The notes below the pieces were generated by a model that was not told the origin of the DNA, ran no database searches, and saw nothing but the letters and a program-made list of their open reading frames with translations. Made by a program: the position numbers and the translations under genes. DNA of 17,850 nucleotides, from UHGV virus genome UHGV-0200089. One strand, 5' to 3'. Source of the DNA: a virus. Each line of letters opens with the position of its first letter. The stretch's first letter is position 1. Shown in pieces: positions 1 through 17,606 of the stretch.

Positions 1-1124
1 TCGCCGCTAAAGTGTCCATCGACACCTCTTCTCTGCAGTATGAGAACGATGACCTGATGCGTCCGGACTTCAACAACGATGACTACGCTATTGCTTGCTG
101 CGTAAGCCCGATGATCGTTGGTAAACAAATGCAGTTCTTCGGTGCGCGTGCAAACCTGGCGAAAACCATGCTGTACGCAATCAACGGCGGCGTTGACGAA
201 AAACTGAAAATGCAGGTTGGTCCGAAGTCTGAACCGATCAAAGGCGATGTCCTGAACTATGATGAAGTGATGGAGCGCATGGATCACTTCATGGACTGGC
301 TGGCTAAACAGTACATCACTGCACTGAACATCATCCACTACATGCACGACAAGTACAGCTACGAAGCCTCTCTGATGGCGCTGCACGACCGTGACGTTAT
401 CCGCACCATGGCGTGTGGTATCGCTGGTCTGTCCGTTGCTGCTGACTCCCTGTCTGCAATCAAATATGCGAAAGTTAAACCGATTCGTGACGAAGACGGT
501 CTGGCTATCGACTTCGAAATCGAAGGCGAATACCCGCAGTTTGGTAACAATGATCCGCGTGTAGATGACTTGGCTGTTGACCTGGTAGAACGTTTCATGA
601 AGAAAATTCAGAAACTGCACACCTACCGTGACGCTATCCCGACTCAGTCTGTTCTGACCATCACTTCTAACGTTGTGTATGGTAAGAAAACGGGTAACAC
701 CCCAGACGGTCGTCGTGCTGGCGCGCCGTTCGGACCGGGTGCTAACCCGATGCACGGTCGTGACCAGAAAGGTGCAGTAGCCTCTCTGACTTCCGTTGCT
801 AAACTGCCGTTTGCTTACGCTAAAGATGGTATCTCCTACACCTTCTCTATCGTTCCGAACGCACTGGGTAAAGACGACGAAGTTCGTAAGACCAACCTGG
901 CTGGTCTGATGGATGGTTACTTCCACCACGAAGCATCCATCGAAGGTGGTCAGCACCTGAACGTTAACGTGATGAACCGTGAAATGCTGCTCGACGCGAT
1001 GGAAAACCCGGAAAAATATCCGCAGCTGACCATCCGTGTATCTGGCTACGCAGTACGTTTCAACTCGCTGACTAAAGAACAGCAGCAGGACGTTATTACT
1101 CGTACCTTCACTCAATCTATGTAA
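1..1124 (+). CDS. pflB: Formate C-acetyltransferase (pyruvate formate-lyase), 5'-partial, C-terminal ~370 aa
   Basis: Open frame runs from the window edge to TAA at 1122-1124. The translation contains the active-site pair 'IACCVSPM' and the glycyl-radical motif 'RVSGYAV' near the C-terminus, and matches E. coli PflB as recalled. A hairpin terminator follows. Confidence 0.96.
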
Positions 1125-1192: not shown

Positions 1193-1317
1193 AGCGCGAG
1201 AGCCTTTTTTGTCAGCTATCTATACTTTAAGGTGACTGCCAAAACAGACTCGACGTAGCCTTCGAGCTGCGCACCAACACGGCCTCAGATGGGCCACATC
1301 TGGAGAAACACCGCAAT

Positions 1318-1330
1318 GTCAGTTATTGGT
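1318..1330. repeat. attL core, direct repeat GTCAGTTATTGGT
   Basis: Identical 13-mer at 16868-16880. Here it is preceded by the native pflA RBS GGAGA and ATG (1316-1318) and followed by phage-type sequence. Confidence 0.8.
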
Positions 1331-1405
1331 GACATTTTTTGACATCTAATTGCATGAAATAAAAGGATTTATTTCTGGTCACGTCCACACATTGACCACA
1401 TCGAC

Positions 1406-1430
1406 AAAAAAAGCCCCTCAACTGAGGGGC
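1406..1430 (-). terminator. Rho-independent terminator downstream of ogr
   Basis: Stem GCCCCTC / GAGGGGC with a short loop; on the minus strand it is followed by a 7-nt T tract (A7 at 1406-1412 on plus). Confidence 0.65.
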
Positions 1431-1443
1431 TTTCTGTTTGTAA

Positions 1444-3399: not shown

Positions 3400-3681
3400 T
3401 TAACCGTCATGCATCATGCTGGCACGAGCGCGCGCACGTTTATCCCGCTCGTATTTTTCGAGCGCATCCTGTAACTGGCGGTCAAGCTGTGTCCCCGGCG
3501 CAGTACCACCCGTCAGGCTGATGTGATATTCGTTTTTACTCTGGTCCACATAAGAGCGGCCAGCCGGTGCCGTGACCGGCTGATAAGCCTGATAGCCTGC
3601 ATAAGAGCTGGTCGCCGGAATATAACCACCGGTGCCATACGTGGCGGCATGAGTTCTGGCGGCGGTCTGGTCAAGTGTGTC
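3400..3681 (-). pseudogene. T: C-terminal remnant of P2 gpT-like tail tape-measure gene (about 93 codons; upper boundary approximate)
   Basis: The frame ends in TAA at 3402-3400 just upstream of the U RBS, in the position T occupies in P2. The protein-like tail is ...YGTGGYIPATSSYAGYQAYQPVTAPAGRSYVDQSKNEYHISLTGG...EKYERDKRARARASMMHDG. Upstream of ~3690 the same frame reads antisense through the P remnant. Confidence 0.5.
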
Positions 3682-3684
3682 TGA

Positions 3685-3996
3685 CTCTTTGTTGATGACC
3701 CCGAGCTTTTCCAGTACACGCCGGAAATGAAAACCGCAATGGTGCTCAAGGCAAAAGACGTTATTCGCCGTGGCTGTCTGGAATATGACGTCAGCGCCAC
3801 CGACATCACCAGCTCGTTTATGGCTATCCGCAAGACCATGACCAGCAGCGGACGCAGCGCCACCTATGAGGCCAGCCGCAGCGAGGAAGCCAGCCACGCC
3901 GACCTCGCCTGGGCGACCATGCACGCTCTGTTAAATGAGCCACTCACCGCCGGTATCAGCACCCCGCTGACATCCACCATTCTGGAGTTTTACTGA
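3685..3996 (+). pseudogene. P: C-terminal remnant of P2 gpP-like terminase large subunit (5' boundary approximate)
   Basis: The frame opens after TGA at 3682-3684 and ends in TGA at 3994-3996, overlapping the Q start as TGATG, which is the P-then-Q arrangement of P2. Only ~100 codons remain, against ~590 for a full-length P. Confidence 0.5.
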
Positions 3997-5030
3997 TGAG
4001 CAAGAAAAAAGGGAAAACACCGCAACCTGCGGCAAAAACAATGACCGCCAGCGCCCCGAAAATGGAGGCATTCACCTTTGGTGATCCGGTGCCGGTACTC
4101 GACCGCCGTGACATTCTGGATTATGTCGAGTGCATCAGTAACGGCAGATGGTATGAGCCACCAGTCAGCTTTACCGGTCTGGCAAAAAGCCTGCGTGCTG
4201 CCGTGCATCACAGCTCACCGATTTACGTCAAACGCAATATTCTGGCCTCGACATTTATCCCGCATCCGTGGCTTTCCCAGCAGGATTTCAGCCGCTTTGT
4301 GCTGGATTTTCTGGTGTTCGGTAATGCGTTTCTGGAAAAGCGTTACAGCCCCACCGGTAAGGTCATCAGACTGGAAACCTCACCGGCAAAATATACCCGC
4401 CGTGGCGTGGAGGAGGATGTTTACTGGTGGGTGCCGTCCTTCAACGAGCCGACAGCCTTCGCGCCCGGTTCCGTGTTTCACCTGCTGGAGCCCGATATTA
4501 ATCAGGAGCTGTACGGCCTGCCGGAATATCTCAGCGCCCTTAACTCTGCCTGGCTGAATGAGTCGGCCACGCTGTTCCGCCGCAAGTATTACGAAAACGG
4601 CGCACATGCCGGATACATCATGTACGTTACCGATGCCGTGCAGGATCGCAACGATATCGAAATGCTTCGCGAAAACATGGTTAAGTCGAAAGGCCGCAAT
4701 AACTTTAAAAATCTGTTTCTCTATGCCCCACAGGGGAAAGCCGACGGCATTAAAATTATCCCGCTCAGTGAAGTGGCAACGAAGGACGATTTTTTTAATA
4801 TCAAAAAAGCCAGCGCCGCTGACCTGCTGGACGCGCATCGCATCCCCTTTCAGTTGATGGGGGGCAAGCCGGAGAACGTCGGGTCGCTGGGTGATATTGA
4901 GAAAGTGGCAAAGGTCTTTGTCCGCAATGAGCTTATCCCGTTACAGGACAGGATCCGCGAGATAAACGGCTGGCTCGGTCAGGAGGTCATCCGATTTAAA
5001 AACTACTCACTGGACACTGACAACGGCTGA
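3996..5030 (+). CDS. Q: P2 gpQ-like capsid portal protein (344 aa)
   Basis: Near-identity to P2 Q as recalled (MSKKKGKTPQPAAKTMTAS...AFTFGDPVPVLDRRDILDYVECISNGRWYEPPVSFTGLAKSLRAAVHHSSPIYVKRN...). GGAG RBS at 3984-3987; followed by a terminator and cos. Confidence 0.92.
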   Translation: MSKKKGKTPQPAAKTMTASAPKMEAFTFGDPVPVLDRRDILDYVECISNGRWYEPPVSFTGLAKSLRAAVHHSSPIYVKRNILASTFIPHPWLSQQDFSRFVLDFLVFGNAFLEKRYSPTGKVIRLETSPAKYTRRGVEEDVYWWVPSFNEPTAFAPGSVFHLLEPDINQELYGLPEYLSALNSAWLNESATLFRRKYYENGAHAGYIMYVTDAVQDRNDIEMLRENMVKSKGRNNFKNLFLYAPQGKADGIKIIPLSEVATKDDFFNIKKASAADLLDAHRIPFQLMGGKPENVGSLGDIEKVAKVFVRNELIPLQDRIREINGWLGQEVIRFKNYSLDTDNG

Positions 5031-5459: not shown

Positions 5460-6623
5460 ATGAGGTTTGTATCACAAATGACCACAAACGAGATACTTTC
5501 GCAGCTTATCAGTCTTGGACTCAAAGGGGATAAAGTTGCTTTTGTTCGGCAGGCTTCGAAACTCGCGCGTTCCTATGATTCTATGGGGCTGCCTGAGCTT
5601 GCTTCAGCCATTAGAGGTAGTATTCAAGATAAAAACACGTTTAACTTGCAGAAAGTATCACGCAGTACATCACCTATTTTTGAACGTCTTGATACATTAC
5701 CTGTAGATAAAGAAACTAAATTTGATTTAGCAGACGTAACTCAACCGTCTTCTGAAATTCAACTCCCATTGTTGAAAGATAGCACTCTGAAAAAAATTAA
5801 AGAATTTTTGACTTTCACTGAACGAGCTAAAGAATTAAAGGATGCCGGTCTTGGCGTGACATCCTCTATGATTTTATATGGGCCACCAGGTTGTGGTAAA
5901 ACCTTGACATCAAAATATATTGCATCCTGTCTAAATTTACCGCTTCTTACTGCAAGATGTGACTCCTTAGTCTCATCATATCTGGGGTCTACTTCTAAAA
6001 ATATCAGGCAGCTATTTGAGTATGCAAGTAAAGCACCATGTGTTTTATTTCTAGATGAACTAGATTCTCTAGCAAAGGCTAGAGATGATCAGCATGAGTT
6101 AGGTGAACTGAAGAGGGTGGTGGTTTCTTTATTGCAAAATATTGACAATCTACCTGAAGAAACAATATTGATTGCTGCAAGTAATCATGAAAATCTTCTA
6201 GATAGCGCAGTTTGGAGGCGCTTTGAGTATAGAATATCTATTGGATTGCCTGATTTTGAAGTCAGAAAACAACTATTTGAACAATATTCAAACATAAAAG
6301 CTACATATGACGATTTTGTTGATGACCTTGCGGAAATATCATCAGGGCTAAACTGCTCATTTATAGAACAATGCTGCTTAAGATCTGAGCGACATGCTCT
6401 GGTTTACAATAATAAACAAATCGATACCCGATTTTTAGTCGAGGCTATCTTAGAAGCGAAGGGAGTTACATTTGATGAAGAAGATAATTTACTTATAAAG
6501 ATTGTGACCACTCTCAGAGAATACAATCCCAAAAGATTTACAATACGAAAGATAGCAAAAATACTAGGGCTTTCAAATGCTAAAGTGTCAAGGCTAACTA
6601 AGAACTATAGAGAGATATTATGA
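5460..6623 (+). CDS. AAA+ ATPase with C-terminal HTH-like segment (387 aa); cargo gene 1 of an IetAS-like pair
   Basis: Walker A 'GPPGCGKT', Walker B 'VLFLDELD', and a sensor/arginine region 'SNHENLLDSAVWRRFEYRISIGLPD'. The C-terminal 'FTIRKIAKILGLSNAKVSRLTKNY' looks like a helix-turn-helix. The stop overlaps the next gene's start as ATGA. Start could instead be ATG 5478, which has a GAGG ~12 nt upstream. Confidence 0.85.
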   Translation: MRFVSQMTTNEILSQLISLGLKGDKVAFVRQASKLARSYDSMGLPELASAIRGSIQDKNTFNLQKVSRSTSPIFERLDTLPVDKETKFDLADVTQPSSEIQLPLLKDSTLKKIKEFLTFTERAKELKDAGLGVTSSMILYGPPGCGKTLTSKYIASCLNLPLLTARCDSLVSSYLGSTSKNIRQLFEYASKAPCVLFLDELDSLAKARDDQHELGELKRVVVSLLQNIDNLPEETILIAASNHENLLDSAVWRRFEYRISIGLPDFEVRKQLFEQYSNIKATYDDFVDDLAEISSGLNCSFIEQCCLRSERHALVYNNKQIDTRFLVEAILEAKGVTFDEEDNLLIKIVTTLREYNPKRFTIRKIAKILGLSNAKVSRLTKNYREIL

Positions 6624-8884
6624 GTAACAAAGAAAGACCAATAAAAATAATTGAGGCGACACCTCAAGATTTTACTGAAAAAACATATAATTTCGGAAAG
6701 AAACAACCTATCCGAACAGTAACAACTAGTCTAAAAAATAGACTCAAACAAGAAGTCGATGACGTTAAAAATTTTTTCCAGAGCTCATTTAAAAAATGGC
6801 CCAATATACCGGCGGTGGCTAGAGTTACTCTTCATGAAAAAGCTCTTGCTAAGTCACATCGCCCATCAAGCCTATTAGGTGATAATACATGTCCCGTAAT
6901 AGGCAGTGATAATTTTGGAGAATTACTTATAAGTGTTACTGAAAAAGGGTTAGCACAACTTCGCAAAAAAATTGAAAATAGCACTAATTCTCATAATGGG
7001 ACAGTACATATTGCTGTAATTGAAAAGATCGAACCTTTTAGTCTTAACCATGATGTTATAGATAAAAATAAATCAGATAGTTTTCTTCTGAAACTCTTTG
7101 ACCATAAAGATAGAACAACTAACCGCAGTATCGACAAAGAATTAATGGAATTTGCAGATGAACTAGGAATACAAAAACCCAAAAAGTATGATATCAGTTC
7201 AGATTTGAGTATATATGAAGTAAAAGGGAATGATAACATCGCCCAACTGGCAAGTTTTATTGGCATACGAAAATTAGAACCTATGCCAACATTTGGTCTT
7301 ACTCATACAGTATCGCAATATATTCCTGCTGAAACTCTAGACCTAGATGATTTTCCCTTACCTCAAGAGGATAAACATTATCCACTACTCGGAATTATAG
7401 ATAGCGGAGTCGATCCCAATAACAACATACTTAGGCCATGGATTTGGGATAGTTTAGATTTAGTAAAAGGAGAACACGACTATTCTCATGGGAACATGGT
7501 TGCAAGTTTAGCAATTAATGGAAGATGGTTGAATAACTATGCTGGTTTTCCTCAATGCCAAGCTGAAATTGTTGATGTTGCAGCCTTTCCCAAAGATGGT
7601 ACGCTCAAATTGCCACAATTAATGAAAGCTATCCGAGAGGCTGTGACCACCTATCCAGAAGTACGTGTATGGAATCTGTCATTAGGTTGTCAATCCCCAT
7701 GTTCTGAAGACAGCTTCTCTGAATTGGGGCATTTTTTAAATGCACTTCATGATGAGCATGATTGTCTTTTCGTCGTAGCATCCGGCAACTACATTTATGA
7801 TCCTCAACGAACCTGGCCTCCTCAAGAATTAGGTGGGCATGACAGAATATCAGCCCCCGCAGATTCTGTTCGTTCATTAACTGTTGGCTCAGTTGCCCAT
7901 TTAGAATCGTCTGACTCTGTGGTCAAAAGATTTGAACCTTCATCTTTTTCTAGAAGAGGTCCCGGCCCAGCCTTTATACCCAAACCAGAGATAAATCACT
8001 TTGGAGGTAATTGTGACAGTAAATTAAACTGTGAACATACCGGAATCATAGCTATTGGCGAGGACAATGCTCTTTGCGAAAGTATTGGCACAAGTTTATC
8101 AGCACCGTTAATCTCAAGTTTAGCGGCATCACTGTGGCATGAACTAGATGTTAATGGTTCTATTTCACCATCGCCTGAACGTATCAAGGCACTATTAATT
8201 CATTCTGCGTTAAAAAACTCACCAGCCAAAACGGAGCATTATGCGTTTAATTATCAAGGATTTGGACGCCCAAGCGATCATATAAATGATATTATTGGTT
8301 GCAATAAAAATGAGATTACATTTCTATTTGAAATAGATACCCGAGAAGGTATTGAATTCAGTAGAACGCCATTTGTAATACCACAGTCATTACGTACTGA
8401 GGATGGAAAATTCACAGGTGAAATTATTATGACACTCGTTTATTCTCCACCGCTTGATTATGACTACCCATCTGAATATTGCCGTTCTAATGTGGATGTG
8501 TCATTCGGGACTTACACTTATGATCCAGTTAACGCTAAATGGATACATAGCGGAAAAATTCCACAAATAAAAGAAAAGAGTGAATTATTTGAAAAGGTAC
8601 TGATAGAAAATGGCTTCAAATGGTCTCCAGTCAAAGTTTATAGAAAACAATTTCCGCAAGGTATAAATGGGGAGCAATGGAGACTTAAACTTGATGTTCA
8701 GAGACGAGCAGAGCAAGAGCCTCTATCTTCACCTCAACGTGCTGTATTGGCTATTACGTTAAGATCTCTTGCCAATTCTACTACAGTCTACAACGAAGCC
8801 GAGGTTGAAATAAATAATCTTGGTTGGAAAGAAACTGATATTGTTGTTCGTGAACAACCAAAAATCAGGATTCGTCAAAAATAA
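6620..8884 (+). CDS. Subtilisin-like (S8) serine peptidase with N- and C-terminal extra domains (754 aa); cargo gene 2
   Basis: S8 catalytic motifs in canonical order: Asp 'LLGIIDSGVD', His 'DYSHGNMVASLA', oxyanion Asn 'FVVASGNY', Ser 'GTSLSAPLISS'. AT-rich coding sequence; translationally coupled to the ATPase. Confidence 0.85.
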   Translation: MSNKERPIKIIEATPQDFTEKTYNFGKKQPIRTVTTSLKNRLKQEVDDVKNFFQSSFKKWPNIPAVARVTLHEKALAKSHRPSSLLGDNTCPVIGSDNFGELLISVTEKGLAQLRKKIENSTNSHNGTVHIAVIEKIEPFSLNHDVIDKNKSDSFLLKLFDHKDRTTNRSIDKELMEFADELGIQKPKKYDISSDLSIYEVKGNDNIAQLASFIGIRKLEPMPTFGLTHTVSQYIPAETLDLDDFPLPQEDKHYPLLGIIDSGVDPNNNILRPWIWDSLDLVKGEHDYSHGNMVASLAINGRWLNNYAGFPQCQAEIVDVAAFPKDGTLKLPQLMKAIREAVTTYPEVRVWNLSLGCQSPCSEDSFSELGHFLNALHDEHDCLFVVASGNYIYDPQRTWPPQELGGHDRISAPADSVRSLTVGSVAHLESSDSVVKRFEPSSFSRRGPGPAFIPKPEINHFGGNCDSKLNCEHTGIIAIGEDNALCESIGTSLSAPLISSLAASLWHELDVNGSISPSPERIKALLIHSALKNSPAKTEHYAFNYQGFGRPSDHINDIIGCNKNEITFLFEIDTREGIEFSRTPFVIPQSLRTEDGKFTGEIIMTLVYSPPLDYDYPSEYCRSNVDVSFGTYTYDPVNAKWIHSGKIPQIKEKSELFEKVLIENGFKWSPVKVYRKQFPQGINGEQWRLKLDVQRRAEQEPLSSPQRAVLAITLRSLANSTTVYNEAEVEINNLGWKETDIVVREQPKIRIRQK

Positions 8885-13435: not shown

Positions 13436-13656
13436 GCCATTCTCCGGTAATGCTTGTTTTTTGCTTCAAAGACTGACTGGCAGGAAACACAACGCGTGGC
13501 TGACGGATAAGCTGCACGACGGGCAGCAGGTATTGGCGCGTCACACTCTTCGCAAACCAGCGCAGAAACACCGCAATGTTTTACCCTTGCCGCGTTAATC
13601 TGGCGCTCCAGTAATTCAGCCTGTTGTTCCTGAATAAAATCTATGTTGTCCGGCAT
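13432..13656 (-). CDS. TraR/DksA-type C4 zinc-finger protein (74 aa), P2 orf82 position
   Basis: 'CEECDAPIPAARRAAYPSATRCVSCQ' gives CxxC-(17)-CxxC spacing typical of the TraR/DksA zinc finger. TAATG coupling to the upstream gene. Confidence 0.75.
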   Translation of the reverse strand: MPDNIDFIQEQQAELLERQINAARVKHCGVSALVCEECDAPIPAARRAAYPSATRCVSCQSVFEAKNKHYRRMA

Positions 13657-14923: not shown

Positions 14924-15295
14924 TTAAGCCGCACGGCCATGTCTTGATTTGCTGTAACTAATGCGATTTTTCCAGTCATGCCATTCTGTCGGAGCTTCAT
15001 CAACCAGTTGGGCTGCGTACTTGTCCCACTCACGGCGATTAATCCATAATTCAGCTTTCCCTCTTGGTTTTAATGGGTCTGTCATGTAGAAGGCTGGCAG
15101 CTTTCCTGCTTTAGCCATTTCAGCCACCGCGCGTGGTGTCTTACCGATGTAAAGAGCAAAACCTTCTTTCGACAGCAAATCAGATGGGCGCTCTGAAATC
15201 TGAATGCTTTTACGTTTGGCTTCATTTTCGAAACTTGCCTCATCGCTAGTTGGACAAGAAATTTCTACATTTGTCGTCACTTTGCTATCCTCCAT
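14924..15295 (-). CDS. cox: Cox-like protein (123 aa) of the P2-type lysogeny switch
   Basis: Divergent from C and first gene of the cox-B-A early operon. The central HTH-like segment 'FALYIGKTPRAVAEMAKAGKLPAFYMTDP' is Cox/AlpA-like. The sequence differs clearly from P2 Cox as recalled. Confidence 0.65.
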   Translation of the reverse strand: MEDSKVTTNVEISCPTSDEASFENEAKRKSIQISERPSDLLSKEGFALYIGKTPRAVAEMAKAGKLPAFYMTDPLKPRGKAELWINRREWDKYAAQLVDEAPTEWHDWKNRISYSKSRHGRAA

Positions 15296-15388
15296 AAGAT
15301 TTGCGATTCACCAACTGGAGCCATCTAGAGCCTTTTTGAGTGAATCACAAATTGCCAAGTAGCAATATAATTGGAGATTAGCAAAATT
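15296..15388. promoter_or_regulatory. Immunity switch region between divergent cox and C (expected to hold the early and repressor promoters and operators)
   Basis: 93-bp AT-rich spacer between divergent starts. Contains the inverted repeat GATTCAC (15303-15309) / GTGAATC (15336-15342) and a TATAAT at 15366-15371. The assignment is by analogy with P2. Confidence 0.45.
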
Positions 15389-15688
15389 ATGTCAAGTGAA
15401 CAAAGTGAGAAACTAAAGCTCATCCGTGAATCCGAACGCCTTAAAACTAAGGAACTTGCTGAATTAATTGGAATTAATTACTACACATATCATGGATATG
15501 AATCAGGAAAATCAAAAATGCCTATGGAAGCAGGTATGAAGCTGTTTAAGCATCCACGCTTTCGCAAGTATCGTGACTGGTTCATGTTTGATGAAACAGA
15601 TCCAGCAGCTGGACAAATAGCCCCGGCTCTCGCACACATTGGGCAAGACTCAACAACCTTGCACCACTCAGACCAGAAGACTGGCTGA
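15389..15688 (+). CDS. C: P2 C-type immunity repressor (99 aa)
   Basis: ATG 15389 with GGAG at 15373-15376. The C-terminal half '...QIAPALAHIGQDSTTLHHSDQKTG' matches the P2 C dimerisation region as recalled, while the N-terminal DNA-binding half is divergent. Same length as P2 C. Confidence 0.85.
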   Translation: MSSEQSEKLKLIRESERLKTKELAELIGINYYTYHGYESGKSKMPMEAGMKLFKHPRFRKYRDWFMFDETDPAAGQIAPALAHIGQDSTTLHHSDQKTG

Positions 15689-15781
15689 CGATTTATTCAG
15701 CATATGTGTGTAGTAAATGTACGAAAGAAAATTGCATTAATTTTCAAGTAGTAGAAGTAAACAGCGTCATCGGAGGGCTTT

Positions 15782-16777
15782 ATGTCTATTAAAAAGCTCG
15801 ATGATGGTCGTTATGAAGTGGACGTCAGACCGCAGGGTGCAGATGGAAAACGTATCAGGCGGAAATTTAAAACTAAAGGTGAAGCTCAGGCATTCGAACG
15901 TCATGTACTGGTTAACTACCACAACAAAGAGTGGTTGGAGAAACCAGCCGACCGCCGAACTCTTACAGAGTTGTTAGGTAGATGGTGGATATATCACGGA
16001 AAATCACATGAGCGTGGAGATATTGAACGGGGGCGTTTAACGACAATAATCGCCAAATTTGCAGAAATGGGAGTGTCCAGAGCTGACCAGCTAACAAAGA
16101 AAACGATAACTGATTATCGCGTTGTAATGATGAACGATGGTCTAAAACCAGCCAGCGTAAATCGACATCTGGCAATAATGAGCGGGATGTTCACCAAGTT
16201 AATTGACGCCGGTGAATACCACTCCCACAACCCGTTCCGTGAGATTAAACGGTTACGTGAAGCTGTTACGGAAATGGCTTTTTTGTCCAGTGAAGAGATT
16301 ACGCGGCTGTTATCCATGCTTGATGGTGATGAATTAAATGCAACTCTGGTCTGCCTTTCTACTGGTGGACGCTGGAGTGAAGTGTCTAATTTAAAAGCTG
16401 AACACATCATTAACCAGATGGTTACGTTTATGAAAACTAAAAACGGAAAACGCAGGACAATTCCCGTTTCGCAGGACCTGATTAAACGGATCAAGACCAA
16501 AAATTCAGGCAGGCTTTTTAATGCCAGTTACTACAAAGTGCGTAACGCTCTCAGGGAAGTAAAACCCGATTTACCTGACGGACAAGCAGTACATGTTTTG
16601 AGGCATACATTTGCCACACATTTTATAATGAATGGAGGTAACATAATCACATTGCAGCGCATCCTGGGTCATTCTAACATTCAGCAAACTATGACCTACG
16701 CACACTTTGCACCGGATTTCTTACAAGATGCTGTGACTCTTAACCCGGTGTCAGGAATGTCCATAATGCGTCCATAA
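15782..16777 (+). CDS. int: Tyrosine integrase, P2 Int family (331 aa)
   Basis: MSIKKLDDGRYEVDVRPQGADGKRIRRKF... N-terminus and the C-terminal catalytic region '...HVLRHTFATHFIMNGGNIITLQRILGHSNIQQTMTYAHFAP...' (R, H-x-x-R, Y) are colinear with P2 Int as recalled. Sits next to attR. Confidence 0.93.
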   Translation: MSIKKLDDGRYEVDVRPQGADGKRIRRKFKTKGEAQAFERHVLVNYHNKEWLEKPADRRTLTELLGRWWIYHGKSHERGDIERGRLTTIIAKFAEMGVSRADQLTKKTITDYRVVMMNDGLKPASVNRHLAIMSGMFTKLIDAGEYHSHNPFREIKRLREAVTEMAFLSSEEITRLLSMLDGDELNATLVCLSTGGRWSEVSNLKAEHIINQMVTFMKTKNGKRRTIPVSQDLIKRIKTKNSGRLFNASYYKVRNALREVKPDLPDGQAVHVLRHTFATHFIMNGGNIITLQRILGHSNIQQTMTYAHFAPDFLQDAVTLNPVSGMSIMRP

Positions 16778-16808
16778 ACCAGAGTTAACTAGAGCCAATT
16801 GAAGCGAT

Positions 16809-17606
16809 ATGAGTAATTTAACTAATTGTAATACAACAGAAAATACCGCTACGGCGGGGGCTACCAAGTCAGTTATTGGTCGCATTCACTCCTTTGAATC
16901 CTGTGGAACCGTAGACGGCCCAGGTATTCGCTTTATCACCTTTTTCCAGGGCTGCCTGATGCGCTGCCTGTATTGTCATAACCGCGACACCTGGGACACG
17001 CATGGCGGTAAAGAAGTTACCGTTGAAGATTTGATGAAGGAAGTGGTGACCTATCGCCACTTTATGAACGCTTCCGGCGGCGGCGTTACCGCATCCGGCG
17101 GTGAAGCAATCCTGCAAGCTGAGTTTGTTCGTGACTGGTTCCGCGCCTGCAAAAAAGAAGGCATTCATACCTGTCTGGACACCAACGGTTTTGTTCGTCG
17201 TTACGATCCGGTGATTGATGAACTGCTGGAAGTAACCGACCTGGTAATGCTCGATCTCAAACAGATGAACGACGAGATCCACCAAAATCTGGTTGGAGTT
17301 TCCAACCACCGCACGCTGGAGTTCGCTAAATATCTGGCGAACAAAAATGTGAAGGTGTGGATCCGCTACGTTGTTGTCCCAGGCTGGTCTGACGATGACG
17401 ATTCAGCGCATCGCCTCGGTGAATTTACCCGTGATATGGGCAACGTTGAGAAAATCGAGCTTCTCCCCTACCACGAGCTGGGCAAACACAAATGGGTGGC
17501 AATGGGTGAAGAGTACAAACTCGACGGTGTTAAACCACCGAAGAAAGAGACCATGGAACGCGTGAAAGGCATTCTTGAGCAGTACGGTCATAAGGTAATG
17601 TTCTAA
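16809..17606 (+). CDS. pflA: Pyruvate formate-lyase activating enzyme (radical SAM) with a prophage-derived 20-aa N-terminal extension replacing the native start
   Basis: From 16869 the translation is [40 protein letters not shown]..., i.e. E. coli PflA with the radical-SAM CxxxCxxC cluster. The only in-frame ATG upstream of the cluster is 16809, inside phage-arm sequence, with a weak GAAG RBS. Confidence 0.88.
16868..16880. repeat. attR core, direct repeat GTCAGTTATTGGT
   Basis: Identical to 1318-1330. It corresponds to codons 1-5 of native pflA, except that the native ATG is replaced by AAG here (A at 16866-16867). Confidence 0.8.

Follow-up and report, generated by a model that had tools for sequence, protein, structure and literature searches.

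A P2-like prophage that sits in the first codons of pflA carries, in the attachment arm abutting the gene, an in-frame ATG and leader for the very gene that it interrupts, and we regard it as likely that this arm is an evolved replacement for the pflA 5′ end, the phage removing one start, bringing a new one and leaving pyruvate formate-lyase (PFL) activation intact. The window, by which we mean the whole 17,850-nt stretch of virus genome UHGV-0200089 that was analysed, begins in the 3′ end of pflB (ORF 12..1124) and runs past pflA at its right edge, with an element of 15.5 kb between the two genes. On this explanation, a prophage with an integrase of the PhiD145/PhiD160-site type would enter codons 1-5 of pflA by site-specific recombination, and every integration would strip the gene of its native ATG, Shine-Dalgarno sequence and promoter. 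The phage P arm would then bring an ATG lying in AU-rich, almost unstructured RNA and about 19 further codons in frame with pflA, the gene would probably become the last of the prophage C-int transcript, and lysogens would make a PflA with a 20-residue and probably non-functional N-terminal tail that still activates PFL.

The two ends of the element share a 13-nt core, GTCAGTTATTGGT, found at 1318-1330 (attL) and 16868-16880 (attR) by repeat search (family D12) and by direct reading, both on the plus strand, and this core spans pflA gene positions 3-15, so that the element is inserted among the opening codons of a gene that encodes a protein. At attL, the native pflA Shine-Dalgarno sequence GGAGA (1301..1305, plus strand; -6.4 kcal/mol) is the same as in the empty site, and the native ATG (1316-1318) with codons 2-5 is fused to the phage P′ arm, forming an 8-codon ORF, MSVIGDIF* (1316..1342, plus strand). 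The P′ arm (1331..1443, plus strand) is identical to the attP of the intact phage P24A7b and contains the ogr-side terminator hairpin and GTCCACA-type elements, which from their resemblance to P2 are putative Int arm sites. At the opposite end, the P arm, from the int stop to the core (16778..16867, plus strand), is identical in the free phage attP, and direct reading and attP comparison of the crossover region (16863..16880, plus strand) show an inverted repeat, ACCAA-N8-TTGGT, around the core, with AAG (16866-16868) occupying the native Met codon position of pflA.

The origin of this AAG can be read from the parental sites. The uninterrupted pflB-pflA locus of a genome without the insertion reads GGAGAAACACCGCAATGTCAGTTATTGGTCGCATT and has ATG, whereas attP of P24A7b reads GCTACCAAGTCAGTTATTGGTGACATT (also given as ...GGGGGCTACCAAGTCAGTTATTGGTGACATTTTTTGA) and has AAG, with the identical leader upstream. 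To the left of the core, attP has ACCAA, which completes the symmetric ACCAA-N8-TTGGT, whereas attB has GCAAT. Since the sequence shared by attP and attB starts at the G of the start codon, the crossover must fall to the right of the T, and the “AT” of ATG always remains with attL; with AAG carried by attP in its symmetric core, the native ATG is thus lost each time. ACCAA is presumably a core half-site of Int, which would explain why AAG is found instead of ATG. A sequence-only reading of the window had proposed that attR of a prophage lies inside pflA, that the native ATG is replaced by AAG and that the GGAGA ribosome-binding site is stranded at attL; all of this is borne out by the paired cores, the empty site and the phage attP, and the opposite case, in which the native start would be the same as that seen in the window, is contradicted by the differing empty site, confirming the recoding. 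As a separate observation, the 16-nt stretch from the native pflA ribosome-binding site to the start, AGAAACACCGCAATGT (1304-1319), recurs exactly at 13564-13579 inside a phage early gene; about 0.03 such repeats are expected by chance in a window of this size by our own estimate, and the flanks differ.

When the frame is followed upstream from Gly5 of PflA, a stop is reached at 16800-16802 and the sole ATG, GTG or TTG on the way is the ATG at 16809; by sequence reading, no other in-frame ATG, GTG or TTG lies between it and the first Cys of the radical-SAM CX3CX2C cluster. The ORF that starts there (16809..17606, plus strand) is 265 aa long, is named pflA in RefSeq (WP_000067979.1) and translates as 20 leader residues followed by SVIGRIH..., the leader being the ATG and 19 codons (16809..16868, plus strand), of which the last is the AAG at the native Met position. 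This leader is in frame in all relatives. Given that the same leader stands in the attP of P24A7b and that the empty site is different, the 20 added codons are phage DNA, and in the free phage they are part of a 28-codon ORF. The continuous 265-codon ORF at attR means that a start and an N-terminus in the right frame come from the element and that the full-length ORF is kept; in-frame walk and translation agree here with the earlier proposal of one ATG in the phage arm that lengthens the protein by 20 aa.

The enzyme encoded downstream of the leader is well preserved. PflA has the Pfam domains Radical_SAM and Fer4_12 and the CX3CX2C cluster, and over residues 21-265 it matches the crystallised E. 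coli PFL-AE (PDB 3C8F/3CB8) at 100% identity, despite the loss of phage structural genes from the element beside it. Providencia-type PflA, with pflB directly upstream, naturally has 16-18 extra polar N-terminal residues, so extensions of similar size exist in native orthologues; a literature search found no report on the activity of N-terminally tagged PflA. In two independent samples, gene calling breaks a Providencia-type pflA with a native long N-terminus into two ORFs at one and the same point (L135, 2025-2650; L136, 3001-3791; 48 aa plus 159 or 214 aa); a frameshift, a pseudogene or an assembly error that recurs may lie behind this. The sequence-only reading had suggested that lysogens may have altered anaerobic fermentation unless the chimeric start is used efficiently; a leader shared across genera, an intact pflA and a leader that outlives the phage, all of them comparative evidence, point away from it.

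By its gene content, the element is a decayed P2-like (Peduovirus) prophage remnant. On the minus strand it carries ogr, D, U and a tape-measure fragment, and on the plus strand, in order, a terminase C-terminal fragment, the portal gene Q, cargo, the replication gene A with early genes, cox, C and the integrase gene. It is not a complete phage genome, being only 15.5 kb long and missing capsid and tail genes. The deletion junction lies at about 3400-4000 (near 3715), where the minus-strand tape-measure fragment abuts the last ~89 terminase codons and then portal Q; this exact junction is absent from all complete E. coli genomes in the collection. For that reason the idea that the window derives from the P2 remnant of E. 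coli B or BL21 was dropped, and a paper on BL21 physiology makes no mention of it. The variable cargo (5460-8884, plus strand) encodes an IetA/IetS anti-phage defence pair, made up of a 387-aa AAA ATPase and a 754-aa S8 subtilase-like protein, with PADLOC E-values of 9e-132 and 1e-273.

At the right end of the element, the immunity repressor gene C (helix-turn-helix; 15389..15688, plus strand) is placed by the RefSeq annotation of an identical stretch in another genome (L001), with coordinates converted. It is followed by a P2-family tyrosine integrase of 331 aa (15782..16777, plus strand; Pfam Int_N and Phage_integrase), which is of PhiD145 type by its integration site rather than by the PhiD145 records (AM158280, AM159077, AJ298559). 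RefSeq annotation gives the order cox-C-int-pflA, int being transcribed toward the attachment site and pflA. This Int is 99-100% identical to those of the Peduoviruses P24A7b, P24E6b, pro483, pro147, D8, 11W and vB_YpM_46, and the next phage relatives are P88 (60% identity) and P2 (~55%). Two GTCCATAA repeats at the end of int (16759..16777, plus strand), which alignment A3 shows to be conserved in each of its seven arms, are putative Int arm-type sites. Searches with the integrase were used because a scan of viral contigs with a 15-nt core pattern gave only three real loci out of 120, the rest being mostly chance. “Phage” records of the P88 type that match pflA turned out to be prophage predictions with intact host pflB-pflA flanks and no insertion at the core, and a 513-nt low-coverage contig in a Terrisporobacter mayombei assembly (L131), which encodes the first 141 residues of the integrase at 99% identity, probably stems from contaminating DNA of enterobacterial or phage origin.

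The configuration is common, and its locus and annotation are already known. The phage arm was found in 405 of 5,426 complete E. coli genomes (7.5%, about 1 in 13), in a single copy each, and the int-arm-pflA junction was likewise counted in 405 complete E. coli genomes, which means that the arm adjoins pflA in every case. Exact copies of the 265-aa protein occur on at least 1,000 contigs. The P2-like coliphages PhiD145 and PhiD160 have been placed at MG1655 coordinate 950293, and the Pectobacterium atrosepticum prophage PhiECA29 has been assigned to the same site, in a paper that does not mention pfl (Nilsson and Haggard-Ljungquist, PMC3448106, Table 1). In NC_000913.3, pflA occupies 950340..951080 on the minus strand. 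After conversion between MG1655 record versions, which we take to be offset by 777 bp, 950293 becomes gene position 11 (10 nt inside pflA) and falls within the core, and hence the integration site has already been published. The system for site-specific recombination in PhiD145 and PhiD160 was reportedly the subject of work by Karlsson et al. in 2006 and Mandali et al. in 2010. In the literature accessible to the analysis, no discussion of the effect of integration on PflA was found, searches on pflA and prophages giving nothing relevant, and neither the conserved leader in frame with pflA nor its copies at fossil loci have, as far as could be found, been described.

Leaders of the same kind occur on diverged relatives of the element. 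A second E. coli type (11 genomes, e.g., S42) has an Int 87% identical to that of the window and a leader that differs at 8 nt out of 60 (7 non-synonymous and 1 synonymous by our own reading of the alignment), with ATG, length and frame kept. A scan of species-representative genomes with Int alignment gave matches in E. albertii (100%), Rahnella ecdela (76%), Serratia proteamaculans (74%) and an Enterobacterales MAG (71%), all with int directly upstream of pflA, and on a Citrobacter contig the order is cox-C-int-leader-pflA. The Int relatives of 71-87% identity (S42, Citrobacter, Serratia, Rahnella and the MAG) all adjoin pflA with an in-frame ATG leader, and protein searches recovered further leaders on Salmonella and metagenomic PflA proteins. 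The window leader of 20 residues leads into SVIG, as does that of S42 (MSNLNHCNTTENPAASGATK), while the others read MSNLTHCKDKENTAITAPVK before AVIG in Citrobacter, MNNVNACITDESPAGAGVTK before SVLG in the MAG, MSNLTDCISTESTTESGGH before MSVQG in Rahnella, MTNDCIIKETPDAAGAA before MSVTG in Serratia, MSNLNDCIKKENTAAAAEKK before PIIG and MTNESVAVTADKK before PVIG in two Salmonella proteins (P0123 and P0133), 20 residues before PVLG in P0136, MGNLIGCIATEEIATATTVK before PVTG in P0167, and MNKITDCITTDPSDLVEDKK before PVLG in L134. The native Met position holds ATG in Rahnella and Serratia, GTG in P0136 and AAG in the others.

Every arm thus has an in-frame ATG leader of 13-20 codons. Two length variants exist, with differences of 6 and 21 nt, each divisible by three, and the position of the ATG is shared by all except Serratia, which has a 6-nt in-frame deletion. 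Nine leaders were read as DNA, and all nine have an open frame 0 and stops in frames +1 and +2. Dinucleotide shuffles of seven leaders gave a probability of an open frame 0 of 0.15-0.34 per sequence, and the product over six diverged leaders is ~1e-4, a value that makes the result look more significant than it is, the lineages having ancestry in common; the chance of an in-frame ATG ahead of a stop in a single sequence is about 1 in 4 by our own estimate. Judged by these estimates, the recurrence of an in-frame ATG in every diverged arm examined is beyond chance. Identity between lineages is 46-70% over the leader and 27-61% over its 3′ half, so that, going by these alignments, the leader peptide is poorly conserved and what is kept would be its translatability; poor peptide conservation together with an open frame fits selection for translatability only.

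A GC-rich inverted repeat in the window leader, CCGC-TACG-GCGG (16846..16860, plus strand), ends in a Shine-Dalgarno-like G-run 5 nt before the AAG. A GC-rich inverted repeat of other sequence is found at the same position in most lineages (L125, L128, L129 and L130) and is absent in Citrobacter. A conserved RNA hairpin was considered and not adopted: RNAalifold gave -1.5 kcal/mol, and a hand-set leader helix had 70% paired cells, compared with 37-46% when slid, and a covariation score reached by 22 of 500 shuffles, all of which is suggestive only.

The start signals at ATG 16809 are of an unusual kind. Its pairing energy with the anti-Shine-Dalgarno is -2.1 kcal/mol, close to the mean of random positions in the window (-1.96 kcal/mol) and far from that of the native start (-6.4 kcal/mol), in line with the weak ribosome-binding site that had been predicted for it, and the leader ATGs of all relatives are similarly poor. 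The 63 nt around ATG 16809 fold at -2.7 kcal/mol, against -15.4 kcal/mol at the native start, which puts them in the 2.3% of comparable window stretches with the least structure. Initiation without a Shine-Dalgarno sequence on open, AU-rich RNA is well established, and the weak structure at ATG 16809 fits such initiation, which we infer to take place at this codon. As for transcription, the native pflA promoter is 15.5 kb distant from the chimeric ORF. A Pc-like promoter, ATCACA-16-TATAAT (15344..15371, plus strand; consensus match only), lies upstream of C and faces a minus-strand Pe-like promoter. Nothing resembling a terminator was found on the plus strand from 15000 to 17000, so int and pflA are not separated by such a site, and since pflA lies downstream of int in this way, it is probably the last gene of the C-int transcript; C-int read-through would be the simplest source of a pflA transcript. 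A promoter within the arm itself was also considered: a promoter-like TTAACC-16-CATAAT (16740-16767 in the window) is present in the window, Rahnella and Serratia, and is absent in S42, Citrobacter and the MAG.

The leader can persist where the prophage does not. In three samples (L138-L140), the locus consists of focA, pflB, 431 nt holding only int codons 269-331, leader-pflA and ycaD; the prophage is gone, and leader-pflA is intact at 265 aa. In a second group (L141-L143), the int fragment is more decayed and leader-pflA is again intact at 265 aa, now preceded by AAGGA. A third locus (L134) retains an int fragment and the leader, with a 1-nt insertion in a C-run of pflA that could reflect a pseudogene or an assembly error. 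The prophage has therefore been lost and the leader kept in three lineages, two of which have an undamaged pflA of 265 aa. Precise excision would restore the native start, which indicates that these loci arose by deletion. In L134, the former place of the prophage, flanked by pflB and the int fragment, holds a gene of glycosyltransferase family 25 (446-1120).

Several observations tell against a replacement 5′ end, and one way to read them is that the insertion attenuates pflA: the chimeric ORF would be poorly translated or not at all, lysogens would be pflA hypomorphs or nulls, and the ATG would be an artefact of gene calling. The lack of a Shine-Dalgarno sequence at the leader ATG, with a pairing energy at background level, the displacement of the native promoter and ribosome-binding site to attL, the arm promoter that is not conserved and the 1-nt insertion in the pflA of L134 all suit such a loss. 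However, pflA is undamaged inside a prophage that has long decayed, the configuration has reached 7.5% of complete E. coli genomes, intact 265-aa ORFs are found on at least 1,000 and on 291 contigs, the leader is in frame across genera, and fossil loci hold an intact leader-pflA after the loss of the phage, and we therefore consider attenuation unlikely.

The open frame of the leader might instead be a by-product of constraints on attP as DNA, that is, of IHF, Int and Cox sites and of arm-to-core spacing, rather than of selection on translation. The conservation of leader DNA indeed coincides in part with an IHF-like motif and with spacing that recombination may constrain, the conserved nucleotides including the GTCCATA repeats and the IHF-site-like YAANNNNTTGTAW, and the peptide sequence is not conserved. 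Yet the 3′ half of the leader, poorly conserved among the more distant pairs, remains open in frame 0 only, an ATG is present in every leader and, Serratia apart, at one position, the 6- and 21-nt indels alter spacing and still preserve frame, and the leader persists where the recombination functions are gone, which together make this reading decidedly improbable. Still harder to credit is initiation at a non-AUG codon, AAG 16866 or AUU 16875, through the G-run, which would yield a near-native PflA. The G-run has a pairing energy with the anti-Shine-Dalgarno of -8.6 kcal/mol, and Rahnella and Serratia retain an ATG there behind a similar G-run that is a plausible Shine-Dalgarno for it (-9.4 and -5.7 kcal/mol, respectively). 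In E. coli, however, the G-run has no usable codon downstream: the AUU lies 14 nt beyond it by our own count, and AAG is to our knowledge not an established E. coli initiation codon. Moreover, the Citrobacter arm has no G-run. Judged by the comparative evidence, all three explanations appear to fit less well than a replacement 5′ end.

If the arm does replace the pflA 5′ end, about 1 in 13 complete E. coli genomes encode a PflA that owes its start and a 20-residue tail to a phage and whose transcription apparently relies on signals of the prophage. Should the extended enzyme be fully active, this would be a clean natural case of a phage repairing the gene that it hits, and would mean that PflA tolerates N-terminal extensions; should expression be altered, a common prophage would change the mixed-acid fermentation of many isolates from clinics and animals. 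That a phage-derived start can outlive its phage is shown by the fossil loci. For annotation, PflA proteins of 246 and 265 aa are to be read as absence and presence of the prophage, not as miscalled start sites. A bolder version, which we hold only tentatively and with considerable doubt, is that the arm is an evolved gene-replacement cassette that wires pflA into the C-int immunity transcript and has repeatedly become the permanent pflA start after decay of the prophage. PFL activation would then depend on the lysogenic state, and the 5′ end of a housekeeping gene would have been remodelled by phages, as L138-L143 suggest.

Among known systems, the Listeria comK prophage is an active-lysogeny switch, in which the gene is split and restored only by excision. 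The present element resembles it in lying inside a host protein-coding gene, but the pflA ORF is continuous at attR and stays whole in the lysogen, which is not the arrangement of such a switch. PhiD145 and PhiD160 are close counterparts, sharing the P2-type switch (cox, C), the type of integrase and an integration site within the present core. The dusA-associated integrases are likewise tyrosine integrases that hit the 5′ end of a conserved housekeeping gene, with sequence of the element replacing that end and the full-length ORF kept, and putative replacement promoters have been noted in these elements (Farrugia et al. 2015, PMC4482086). They differ in integrase family and target, and the segment replaced there encodes a structural beta-strand, whereas in pflA only residues 1-3 are replaced and a tail of 13-20 residues is added. 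Phage 186 and Fels-2 integrate in tRNA/tmRNA genes and carry a copy of the gene end (PMC3448106). They share with the pflA phage an attP that copies part of the target, through which integration restores a gene that works or, for pflA, probably works; however, they regenerate an identical 3′ end of an RNA gene, whereas the pflA phage changes the product itself, giving it a new start and an added tail.
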